A DNA stretch of 64,000 nt from Shigella phage SH7: sequence record KX828711. One strand, written 5' to 3'. The notes under the pieces are model-generated. The model made no database searches and was not told the DNA's origin. It saw nothing but the letters and a program-made list of their open reading frames with translations. The position numbers were made by a program, and so were the translations under genes. This document shows, piece after piece, positions 351 to 63,374 of this stretch. The stretch's first letter is position 1, and each line of letters starts with the position of its first letter.

Positions 351-1975
<1,625 letters not shown>

Positions 1976-12341: not shown

Positions 12342-12350
12342 ATTAAAAAA

Positions 12351-12373
12351 GGCCCAACCAAAAAGGAAGGGCC
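12351..12373. terminator. hairpin between convergent uvsW.1 and small minus-strand ORF
   Basis: ggccc ... gggcc stem with 13 nt loop, A/T-rich flanks. Confidence 0.35.
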
Positions 12374-12396
12374 AAAACTATAGACTAAAGGTCACA

Positions 12397-12564
12397 CTAT
12401 AGCAAAAGTTGTGTTTCATTTAATTGTTCTTCCGAACTTTCTGAAACTGGTAGTTCTTTAATGTAATTATAGCAAGGCCCAGGATGTACAGGACCTTTGT
12501 CTGTTTCAACAACCAATGCAGAATCGATTGGAGTTTTACAGACAACACAAATCTTATCTGACAT
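12397..12564 (-). CDS. small Cys-containing protein, 55 aa (below track threshold; position of T4 uvsY.-2)
   Basis: ATG at 12564 preceded by GAGGAG; MSDKICVVCKTPIDS...HPGPC; stop TAG 12397-12399. Confidence 0.5.
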   Translation of the reverse strand: MSDKICVVCKTPIDSALVVETDKGPVHPGPCYNYIKELPVSESSEEQLNETQLLL

Positions 12565-12589
12565 GATTGTCTCCTCTGAATTATATATC

Positions 12590-12597
12590 TATTTATA
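12590..12597 (-). promoter_or_regulatory. late promoter TATAAATA (minus strand) upstream of the 55 aa ORF
   Basis: Plus-strand tatttata = minus TATAAATA, 26 nt upstream of ATG. Confidence 0.5.
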
Positions 12598-12687
12598 ACC
12601 CCATCTTAAAACGCATTTCTTGTACACGCTTTAAACATGCTTCCATTTCTGCTAAAAGTCTAAATACTTCTTTATAATTTGTCATAT

Positions 12688-29955: not shown

Positions 29956-30042
29956 TTTATTCTCCTTTGTTTGTGTAAGATAATACTATCACAAAGGAAC
30001 CATACTGTAAACAACTTTATGCAATCTTTGGAAAATAAAAAA

Positions 30043-30060
30043 GGACTCCCGAAGGAGTCC
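30043..30060 (-). terminator. hairpin (ggactcc-CGAA-ggagtcc) downstream of small basic ORF
   Basis: Perfect 7 bp stem. Confidence 0.5.
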
Positions 30061-30065
30061 TCAAC

Positions 30066-30242
30066 TTATGCTTTCTGCTTACCAAAACGAGAAGCATCAT
30101 CTCGAAGAACCGCACGTGCTCGACGCATGATCTTCTCAACAGTTTGATTGATACGAGAGTTCGACCCACGCTTGTAGCCAGCGCGTTTAGAATCACCAAC
30201 TTTCTTTTCAACTGCTTTCTTTGCTTTAACTTGTTTTGCCAT
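30066..30242 (-). CDS. small highly basic protein, 58 aa
   Basis: Likely start MAKQVKAKK; K/R-rich throughout. Confidence 0.5.
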   Translation of the reverse strand: MAKQVKAKKAVEKKVGDSKRAGYKRGSNSRINQTVEKIMRRARAVLRDDASRFGKQKA

Positions 30243-30488
30243 TATAAATTCTCTTTTAAATGAAAATGCAGGACTTATTGGCATTGCCTGCGCAAGCCCT
30301 CAAGGGGAACATAGGTTTTTTGGATATTTAACGACCAGGATAACCATAAACCCGTCATCATTCACATTCAAGAGGTACACCGTAAAACTGCCGGGGTCTT
30401 AAAACTATAATGATTCGCAAATCATTAATCAGACAGTTCGACGGCTCCTCGATTTTAGCTCACGCTAATGCAGTGAATCTCCAATAAA

Positions 30489-30737
30489 TTACTTCAATGT
30501 TACCACAAAGTGACGAACTGCTTTTCGTGCAGCAGAAGCCAAAGGCTTAGCATATTTAAGTTCATCTTTTTCCTGAAGCTCAGCAGCTAATGCAGTTTGA
30601 GCAGGATTCAGATGTTTGAAATAACGCAGGATTTCAAGAGCTTCGGCTTCAACATCAATAGATGCACCATAGTTTTCGTGACCATTATTCCATGCGTTTC
30701 GTTGCAGTTCAAGAGCGTGTTGTAATTGTTTAATCAT
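30489..30737 (-). CDS. rIII: rIII lysis-inhibition accessory protein
   Basis: 82 aa (T4 rIII length); position next to gene 31. Confidence 0.75.
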   Translation of the reverse strand: MIKQLQHALELQRNAWNNGHENYGASIDVEAEALEILRYFKHLNPAQTALAAELQEKDELKYAKPLASAARKAVRHFVVTLK

Positions 30738-32974: not shown

Positions 32975-33216
32975 GTTGATCCCAGCTCCTTACTTTCAAC
33001 ATTTTTAACTAATTTGACAGAAACTAATTCAGCATCTTGGGTAATCATTACCGGACCTTCTTCATACTCTTCAAGATATTCTAGAGCTTTCTTTTTAGCT
33101 TCTTCCTTCGTATCAGTTTGAGCATAGATATAGAACATACAACCAGTAATACCTACTACTTTCCACTTAATTTCTTTATCAGTTTTAATTTCAAATTTAC
33201 TTACAGAATCATCTTT

Positions 33217-44068: not shown

Positions 44069-45097
<1,029 letters not shown>

Positions 45098-63098: not shown

Positions 63099-63130
63099 TT
63101 TCTAATCTCCGTAATTCTGTATCAGTAGTT

Positions 63131-63219
63131 GATAGTTGTATAGTACCACAGTATGCTTTGGTTGTAAACCGTTTTGTGAAAAAATTTTTGAAATAAAAAG
63201 GGAGAGCCAAGGCTCTCCC
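63131..63219 (-). promoter_or_regulatory. terminator hairpin plus early promoter cassette upstream of motA (copy 2)
   Basis: gggagagcc-aa-ggctctccc hairpin 63200-63219; GTTTAC, 17 nt spacer, TACTAT. Confidence 0.55.
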
Positions 63220-63224
63220 TAAAA

Positions 63225-63374
63225 TTACTGCATGACTGTGATAACTGTCATGATAACACGTTGAATTCCGAATGCAAGAAGACCTCCTGCTACGGCTGGA
63301 ACAACACCTAAACCCGCCAGTAAAATGCTACCAGATACTAATGCAGTGCTTGTAATACCTATGAATGGACTCAT
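63225..63374 (-). CDS. small hydrophobic membrane protein, 49 aa (below track threshold)
   Basis: ATGA overlap with gene 52 stop; MSPFIGITSTALVSGSILLAGLGVVPAVAGGLLAFGIQRVIMTVITVMQ. Confidence 0.45.
   Translation of the reverse strand: MSPFIGITSTALVSGSILLAGLGVVPAVAGGLLAFGIQRVIMTVITVMQ

Follow-up and report, generated by a model that had tools for sequence, protein, structure and literature searches.

We show by comparative analysis that the 246-bp intergenic region between rIII and 30.9 of a T4-like phage carries a conserved, modular, and strand-specific RNA structure within the rIII–30.9 operon, which looks like a new RNA motif composed of hairpins and a pseudoknot rather than a spacer or a dead gene. 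The region occupies positions 30243-30488 of the window, the 64,000-nucleotide stretch of Shigella phage SH7 (KX828711) analyzed here. T4 is among the best-annotated viruses, yet this gap is unannotated and lacks a description in the searchable literature; a search of the literature on T4 small RNAs and transcriptome maps returned no description of the rIII–30.9 locus. A pseudoknot supported by covariation extends the T4 parts list by a new RNA motif, and the combination of T4 genetics with a 55-nt RNA makes it an experimentally easy handle, one that may bear on the expression of rIII (lysis inhibition, S1/RegB control) and of the basic protein gp30.9. The shuffling of RNA elements at a single locus, including a second structured RNA of about 140 nt in many relatives, is an unusual pattern and, if the modules do act in trans or are catalytic, they would represent a new class of phage accessory RNA. 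The structural evidence throughout is comparative and computational.

Comparison with T4, which the original prediction had proposed, identified the segment as the rIII–30.9 spacer: it is 98% identical to T4, and its counterpart (NC_000866 130,541-130,784) has no annotated feature in either T4 record. The phage itself is a T4-type myovirus. The flanking genes are those originally named, rIII upstream (30489-30737, minus strand) and a small basic-protein gene, 30.9, downstream (30066-30242, minus strand, start codon at 30240-30242); gp30.9 has no Pfam family and falls in a PHROG of unknown function. All neighboring ORFs, encoding gp31 co-chaperonin, rIII, gp30.9, gp30.8, and dCMP deaminase, lie on the minus strand, a consensus terminator scan finds a strong canonical terminator 3' of 30.9 (30041-30062), and an early promoter is annotated beyond this terminator in another T4-like record, so that rIII, the spacer, and 30.9 form one transcription unit. 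Transcription of rIII is driven from early, middle, and late promoters (PMC9409239).

Several annotations touch this locus. A 72-codon ORF (30066-30284, minus strand) extends 30.9 upstream through the terminal hairpin of the spacer, with an ATG at 30284, and this longer form is annotated in some GenBank records (sutha, Ac3); the conserved Shine-Dalgarno sequence and ATG (30242), together with the RNA structure, point to the 58-codon form as the real gene. A sub-threshold Rfam match to Atu_C8, a Rhizobiales sRNA (30027-30110, minus strand; 31 bits against a gathering score of 50), is accounted for by the strong terminator hairpin GAGGACUCCUUCGGGAGUCCUUUUUU after 30.9. Three records (MZ502379, OR539218, and OR352950) label the spacer "1,4-alpha-glucan (glycogen) branching enzyme, GH-13-type", which looks like an automatic mis-annotation of non-coding sequence.

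The original prediction described the segment as ORF-free and GC-richer, and offered a structured non-coding RNA, a regulatory region, or a decayed gene as its explanation. No ORF of at least 60 codons lies wholly within 30243-30488 on either strand, the 72-codon upstream extension of 30.9 being the only long ORF that touches it, and 30285-30488 (204 bp), free of any ORF of at least 60 aa, is the fourth largest such stretch in the 64-kb window. Other stretches without an ORF of at least 60 codons on either strand lie at 12342-12687 (346 bp), 63099-63370 (272 bp), 32975-33216 (242 bp), and 44081-44271 (191 bp). The quoted sequences are all present on the plus strand (GCCTGCGCAAGCCCTCAAGGGG from 30286, CTGCCGGGG from 30388, and CGACGGCTCCTCG from 30439), and the AT-rich inverted repeat is found at 30408-30427, having been quoted in its minus-strand reading. 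The claim on GC content holds against the window mean (39.8% versus 36.1%) but not against the flanking genes, which are equal or higher (rIII 39.8%, 30.9 43.5%). With a standard deviation of 4.1% among 246-bp windows, the segment stands at the 84th percentile, and 16% of non-overlapping windows have at least its GC content; the cue is marginal and weakly true, and the segment would not stand out by GC alone. Nor does the whole region stand out by its single-sequence fold, whose stability is ordinary (z = -1.6 for the minus strand, -0.8 for the plus strand); the evidence that counts comes from comparison with relatives.

The segment matches 769 phage records, at one place in each. From GenBank phages, IMG/VR, and metagenomes, we collected the locus as 63 distinct rIII–30.9 spacers, ranging from 9 to 416 nt, which in the mRNA sense (minus strand) are mosaics of recurring modules, named F, G, D, E, A, and B, plus a terminal hairpin/U-rich tract (C in the window, where the order is F-G-A-B-C). 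In a module table built with regular expressions, which miss some copies, A is found in 62 of the 63 distinct spacers and B in 60, while E, G, and D have 31, 29, and 16 occurrences, respectively, and there are at least eight module orders, including A-F-E-B, E-A-B, B-E-A, B-A, and F-G-(D or E)-A-B. While F, G, D, and E are acquired, lost, and rearranged, B is rarely missing but moves, and the position directly upstream of the 30.9 ribosome-binding site is in every case taken by a GC-rich hairpin followed by a U-rich tract, whatever precedes it. Indels are concentrated at two discrete sites. Judged from these alignments, A is kept in essentially every T4-like phage with the rIII–30.9 arrangement, and the pseudoknot is kept across at least four Tevenvirinae genera (Tequatrovirus, Mosigvirus-like, Dhakavirus, and Gelderlandvirus); the identity of module A to distant clades, 56-88%, equals or exceeds that of rIII third codon positions (45-70%).

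Module A (30305-30359, minus strand) was delimited by a covariance model and covariation as an H-type pseudoknot. Its first helix, S1, pairs 30351-30357 (UGAC-GGG) with 30332-30339 (CCU(G)GUCG) in 7 bp with a bulge, closing an 11-nt loop that contains GGUU, and is followed by the conserved A-rich linker UUAAAUAUCCAAAA (L3, 30318-30331) and by AACC (30314-30317), which pairs with the loop GGUU (30342-30345) to form the loop-to-tail helix S2. This second helix varies from 4 to 9 bp across phages and differs in sequence by clade (GUUGGUU/AACCAAC, UUGUGAG/CUCACAA, AGUAGUU/AACUACU, CAAGGUU/AAUCUUG, GAUGG/CCAUC), being reduced in the T4 clade to GGUU/AACC only, 4 bp with -3.7 kcal/mol. The covariance model, built from 31 variants, recovers 67 instances across 80 sources and has a single match in the 64-kb window, its matches scoring 58-62 bits (E about 1e-12 to 1e-14).

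Among 38 distinct sequences, the covariation score of A is 0.306 against 0.135±0.015 in shuffles, with 0 of 500 reaching it, a statistic that overstates significance because the sequences are phylogenetically related; the shuffle control is blind to relatedness, and the more meaningful control, in which the structure is slid, gives scores that are all ≤0.163. In the same set, 78% of cells are paired compared with 67% after shuffling, two-sided changes number 70 compared with 34±4, and 8 of the 14 pairs change on both sides. Within S1, 18 sequences have A-U at pair 5-28, 17 have U-A, and 1 has G-C, and pair 6-27 is C-G in 25, G-C in 9, and U-A in 4. S2, which was left out of the model behind the scored alignment, changes in the same manner at pairs 13-50 (G-C 12, U-A 9, G-U 4, A-U 1, C-G 1), 14-49 (A-U 7, G-C 5, U-A 3), and 16-47 (G-C 28, A-U 5, G-U 4). 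Because the variable number of A residues in the linker blurs the S2 register, we also applied a register-free test of loop/tail duplex energy, in which cognate duplexes average -6.2 kcal/mol and non-cognate ones -3.5 kcal/mol (Mann-Whitney p about 1e-7, which for related sequences is no true probability). A second, S2-aware covariance model barely altered the alignment. By these comparative measures, both helices of the pseudoknot are supported by covariation.

Each module occurs once in the 64-kb window, and module A was not found elsewhere. A scan of IMG/VR with a 16-base pattern returned 35 loci, of which 5, all T4-like, were scored by the A model and the others were chance matches; A as a dispersed repeat was rejected, given the single locus in the window and the chance nature of the IMG/VR extras. 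A leader peptide starting from the conserved AUGAUG before S1 was also discarded, as the AUG is absent in several clades, has no Shine-Dalgarno sequence, and its frame shifts with the length of the A-run.

Two hairpins separate module A from rIII. Directly after the rIII stop lies F, a small hairpin (GGAGAUUCACUGCAUUAGCGUGAGCUAA, with GGAG; 30455-30482, minus strand) of predicted -6.6 kcal/mol, whose homologues are relocated in relatives, for instance 3' of A in L032 and L047. It is followed by G, an 88-nt irregular long hairpin (CGAGGAGCC...CCUCUUGAAUGU; 30364-30451, minus strand; -25.9 kcal/mol in the window fold), whose apical stem is the inverted repeat of the original prediction. In an RNAalifold consensus of 18 distinct variants, G has 24 pairs, 5 of them with compensatory changes, including GC/AU at 10-75, CG/UA at 16-69, and both AU/UG and UA/CG in the apical stem. 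This stem changes from UAAUGAUU/AAUCAUUA to UAUCGAUU/AAUCGGUA in L006 and L025, keeping the pairing, while the G of sutha and S16 consists of the basal stem only, without the 44-nt apical extension. G·U pairs occupy three positions of G, two of them in 18/18 sequences and one in 10/18, and U·G is present in 30 of 38 rows at pair 3-30 of A. In the opposite strand, these frequent G·U and U·G pairs would become A·C, which identifies the mRNA sense (minus) as the functional strand.

These pairings weigh on the possibility that the region has no RNA function and is a decayed gene, a neutral spacer, or a DNA-level element such as a promoter, a recombination hotspot, or a mobile-element scar, a reading that we find barely credible. 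It could draw on the small hypothetical ORFs annotated at the spacer in some GenBank records, on the clustering of indels at two discrete sites, which suggests recombination, and on T2, in which the 3' strand of G reads TTTACG-N17-TACTAT, like the T4-type early promoter of PeSL cassettes. The compensatory changes and strand-specific G·U pairs, however, show selection at the RNA level, and this covariation largely refutes a non-functional origin. The spacer ORFs are short, use TTG or GTG as start codons, and differ between relatives without conservation of frame; likewise, a protein-coding test found no conserved frame, the longest internal ORFs having 25-28 codons and the indels not being multiples of three. 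Close relatives have lengths of 241, 244, 245, and 246 nt, which together with the non-conserved small ORFs excludes a coding or recently decayed coding sequence, and substitutions track base-pairing, not codons. Module A was found only at the rIII–30.9 locus and so is no dispersed repeat, and no promoter-like site was found in 30243-30488 on either strand. Of the explanations originally offered, the decayed gene is not supported, whereas the structured non-coding RNA is borne out by conservation in 769 phage records, by helices kept through compensatory changes, and by G·U pairs confined to the minus strand; a regulatory role of this RNA is plausible.

Two promoter-like sequences were considered individually. 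A MotA-box reading of GGGCTTGCG was rejected as a poor match that is not conserved in S16. On the plus strand, TATAAATT (30243-30250) matches the T4 late promoter TATAAATA at 7/8 positions and is directed antisense into the spacer; the late-promoter reading was rejected as another poor match, without conservation in S16. The sequence also lies over the ribosome-binding spacer of 30.9, and the likeness is probably due to chance.

The 3' part of the RNA contains the elements closest to 30.9. B (GUUCCCCUUGAGGGCUUG; 30293-30310, minus strand) is a small hairpin motif with the consensus GUWCCC-loop-GGRCUUG and one match in the window, sitting before or after A depending on the phage. Its 3-bp stem shows no variation within the T4 and S16 clades, with one compensatory variant, GCC...GGC, in L090; across relatives, the sequence of B is strongly conserved, while its hairpin structure is weakly supported. 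C (30258-30291, minus strand) combines a terminal hairpin, GCAGG-14 nt-CCUGC (30268-30291; 5 bp, -6.9 kcal/mol), with the U-rich AUUUUCAUUU. In the S16 and L024 clade, an A-U pair of C becomes U-A and the stem is longer (GAACUGG/CCAGUUC), and other clades have at this position unrelated, stronger GC-rich hairpins (-9 to -17.6 kcal/mol) with U-rich tracts. The consensus terminator scan did not call C, placing terminators only after 30.9; with 5 bp and a 14-nt loop, C looks like a candidate weak terminator or attenuator. Finally, a candidate Shine-Dalgarno-sequestering helix (30249-30266, minus strand) adjoins the 30.9 start codon on its upstream side, in which UUUUC (30262-30266) is predicted to pair weakly with GAGAA (30249-30253) at -2.4 kcal/mol. 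Possible anti-Shine-Dalgarno pairing is seen in every clade with differing sequences, (U)CUCC with GGA(A)G(A) elsewhere, suggesting that the U/C-rich tract may pair with the 30.9 Shine-Dalgarno.

The best explanation of this organization, which we put forward tentatively and rate slightly below an even chance, is a cis-acting structured intercistronic RNA that sets the expression of the rIII mRNA and of 30.9. In such a mechanism, the RNA would act on the transcript that carries it: the pseudoknot and the hairpins upstream of it would shield the rIII message at its 3' end or serve its processing there, the final hairpin and U-tract would stop or pause part of transcription, and in read-through transcripts the U/C-rich tract would pair with the 30.9 Shine-Dalgarno, leading to low, controlled levels of gp30.9. 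The pseudoknot would then be bound by a protein or RNase controlling the balance. The distance from A to the 30.9 start is about 70 nt in T4 and more than 250 nt in L032, and A lies on either side of E; as this distance is not fixed, A cannot directly occlude the 30.9 ribosome-binding site. Further points against the cis-acting reading are the weakness of hairpin C, the unexceptional fold of the region as a whole, and an S2 of only 4 bp in T4-type sequences.

Another reading is a ligand-sensing riboswitch, in which the pseudoknot is an aptamer of the preQ1-I/SAM-II-like type controlling the terminator-like hairpin and 30.9. Like preQ1-I and SAM-II, A is compact (about 50 nt), with two helices in an H-type pseudoknot, a conserved A-rich third loop able to lie along the first helix, and conserved loop nucleotides; T4 has a terminator-like hairpin and a Shine-Dalgarno-sequestering helix downstream, and an alternative pairing between B and C reaches -12.4 kcal/mol compared with -9.6 kcal/mol for the separate hairpins. 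Nonetheless, a riboswitch appears very unlikely to us: no riboswitch class in Rfam (preQ1-I, SAM-II, or others) matches the region, the distance between aptamer and expression platform varies, with large modules inserted between them, and the neighbors are rIII and gp30.9, an uncharacterized basic protein without a metabolic link, so that no ligand pathway or metabolic gene is associated with the locus.

The modules present only in relatives extend the repertoire of this spacer. Element E, a conserved RNA of about 140 nt in 31/63 distinct spacers, is present neither in the 64-kb window nor in T4, with copies at L030:1757-1900 (plus strand) and L002:1129-1263 (minus strand) and also in L026, L028, L031-L038, and others; in G4500 and IME08-like phages, its insertion site coincides exactly with the window's GAA, between G and A. 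RNAalifold assigns it 44 pairs, 17 with compensatory changes, and Rfam searches of the relatives returned no match for it; from this alignment, E looks like an undescribed multi-helix phage RNA. Module D (AUGCGUCAGAAAAGKGUUAKCUGUSUAAG) is a hairpin between G and A in T2, EQ1, and IME08-like phages (L003, which is T2, 1001-1288, minus strand; L027:1750-1897), and L027 reuses the module as the interior of its terminal hairpin before 30.9, a different role.

A further arrangement is found in two independent IMG/VR contigs of 97 and 150 kb (L048:1290-1640 and L049), where the spacer block lies within a 12-tRNA cluster, between tRNA-Gly and tRNA-Gln and in the same orientation, without the 30.9 gene. 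The block comprises F-G-A-B-C with the Shine-Dalgarno sequence and ATG of 30.9, fused to the last 28 codons of rIII, and the 13-nt TTTATTGGAGATT is present at both of its ends, its last bases being the 5' end of tRNA-Gln. Judging by the near-identical sequences, this is a recent rearrangement that says little about selection. ARAGORN detects neither tRNA nor tmRNA in the region, and no tRNA genes in the window or in the intergenic regions of L002, L003, L027, L030, and L035, and a tRNA remnant was rejected on this negative result, only the first 13 nt (TTTATTGGAGATT) coinciding with the tRNA-Gln junction of L048.

The main rival to a cis-acting RNA, somewhat unlikely in our estimate, is that the modules encode one or several small stable RNAs, cut from the rIII transcript and acting in trans as a decoy, a sponge, or a protein-binding RNA, possibly against host defense. 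There is precedent in the T4 tRNAs and the species 1 and 2 RNAs, which are cut from a precursor. The modules behave autonomously, occurring in the orders A-E-B, E-A-B, B-E-A, and F-G-A-B and varying in presence as accessory genes do; a hairpin and U-tract close the block, as in 3'-UTR-derived sRNAs; and E, with its 17 compensatory pairs, is larger than a typical leader element. The placement of the whole block among the tRNAs of L048 and L049, lacking 30.9, is as compatible with a stable-RNA gene as with a leader, although the recency and near-identity of that arrangement make it little informative. Against trans-acting RNAs, no promoter was found inside the region, which also has no similarity to rnaC or rnaD and no tRNA-like gene.

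To place module A among known RNA families, all 4227 families of Rfam 15 were searched; none matches the region (E≤10), five relatives (E≤1), or the whole 64-kb window (gathering scores), and a 133-nt query from the window did not match pistol even at E≤10. The closest resemblance is to the pistol ribozyme (RF02679), whose RNAs are phage-associated and have a published consensus (PMC4604425). As in the pistol env25, A consists of a 5' hairpin, an A-rich linker, and a loop that pairs with a downstream strand, and the 9-nt linker string CGUUAAAUA of env25 (CGUGGUUAGGGCCACGUUAAAUAGUUGC... / CGUGGUUAGGGCCACGUUAAAUAGUUGCUUAAGCCCUAAGCG...; PMC6101554) is also found in A; the hairpin and the pseudoknot strand are similarly spaced in the two RNAs (about 15 nt versus 17). 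The loop-to-downstream-strand pseudoknot that characterizes pistol is present in A, where S1 and S2 both covary, and the same scaffold is shared by the pseudoknot hammerhead (PMC11300833). Moreover, B is always followed by CUUG and directly follows the pseudoknot strand or directly precedes P1, as would be expected for a circularly permuted P3-junction-P2b.

These likenesses raise the possibility that A combines with B into a pistol-like self-cleaving ribozyme, perhaps circularly permuted, that cuts the rIII–30.9 transcript, which we consider highly improbable. No covarying P2 helix was found in A: the only possible one is a 3-bp CAA/UUG, the CUUG flank of B is nearly invariant, and the changes in T2 and L092 (UUU) create mismatches. 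A has neither a conserved GU cleavage junction nor a conserved G after the pseudoknot strand, and its S1 has 7 bp with a bulge, compared with 5 bp for the pistol P1. Where P3 and the GU junction would be expected, T4-type regions have B after A, then CU instead of GU, and elsewhere the position of B is not fixed, as it precedes A, is absent (L066, L064), or lies about 220 nt away, with F and E between A and B (L032-type phages). Lacking a covarying P2, a GU junction, a fixed P3, and a model match, module A is not classed as a pistol ribozyme on the sequences compared. A broader proposal, distinctly unlikely but of wider reach, is that the spacer is a cassette site for catalytic or counter-defense RNAs, in which A and B would be a divergent, sometimes permuted relative of pistol or the pseudoknot hammerhead cleaving the transcript, or the modules, including E, would be released as decoys on host factors.

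With regard to modular phage elements, the spacer recalls PeSL cassettes, which consist of a terminator stem-loop and an early promoter (TTTACW-N17-TAYWAT in T4) and are dispersed in hyperplastic regions (PMC2839356, PMC4122927), as both are short non-coding modules tied to shuffling and indels between T4-like genomes. The rIII–30.9 region differs in having no promoter-like site and in that A is unique to one locus; a PeSL cassette was rejected on the lack of a sigma-70-like site in 30243-30488 on either strand, TTTACG-N17 in the window being followed by GAATGA. A comparison can likewise be drawn with the T4 species 1 and 2 RNAs (rnaC and rnaD), which are also structured phage RNAs of unknown function in a variable modular cluster, a setting that the L048 and L049 block resembles. 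Among T4 mRNAs, the leader pseudoknot of gene 32 is autoregulatory and serves as a protein nucleation site for translational control, holding a constant position at the operator's 5' end beside an unstructured A/U-rich tract. Although its sequence is unrelated to that of A, and A shifts relative to the start codon, both are pseudoknots of T4 mRNAs located upstream of a small gene of the nucleic-acid-binding type.
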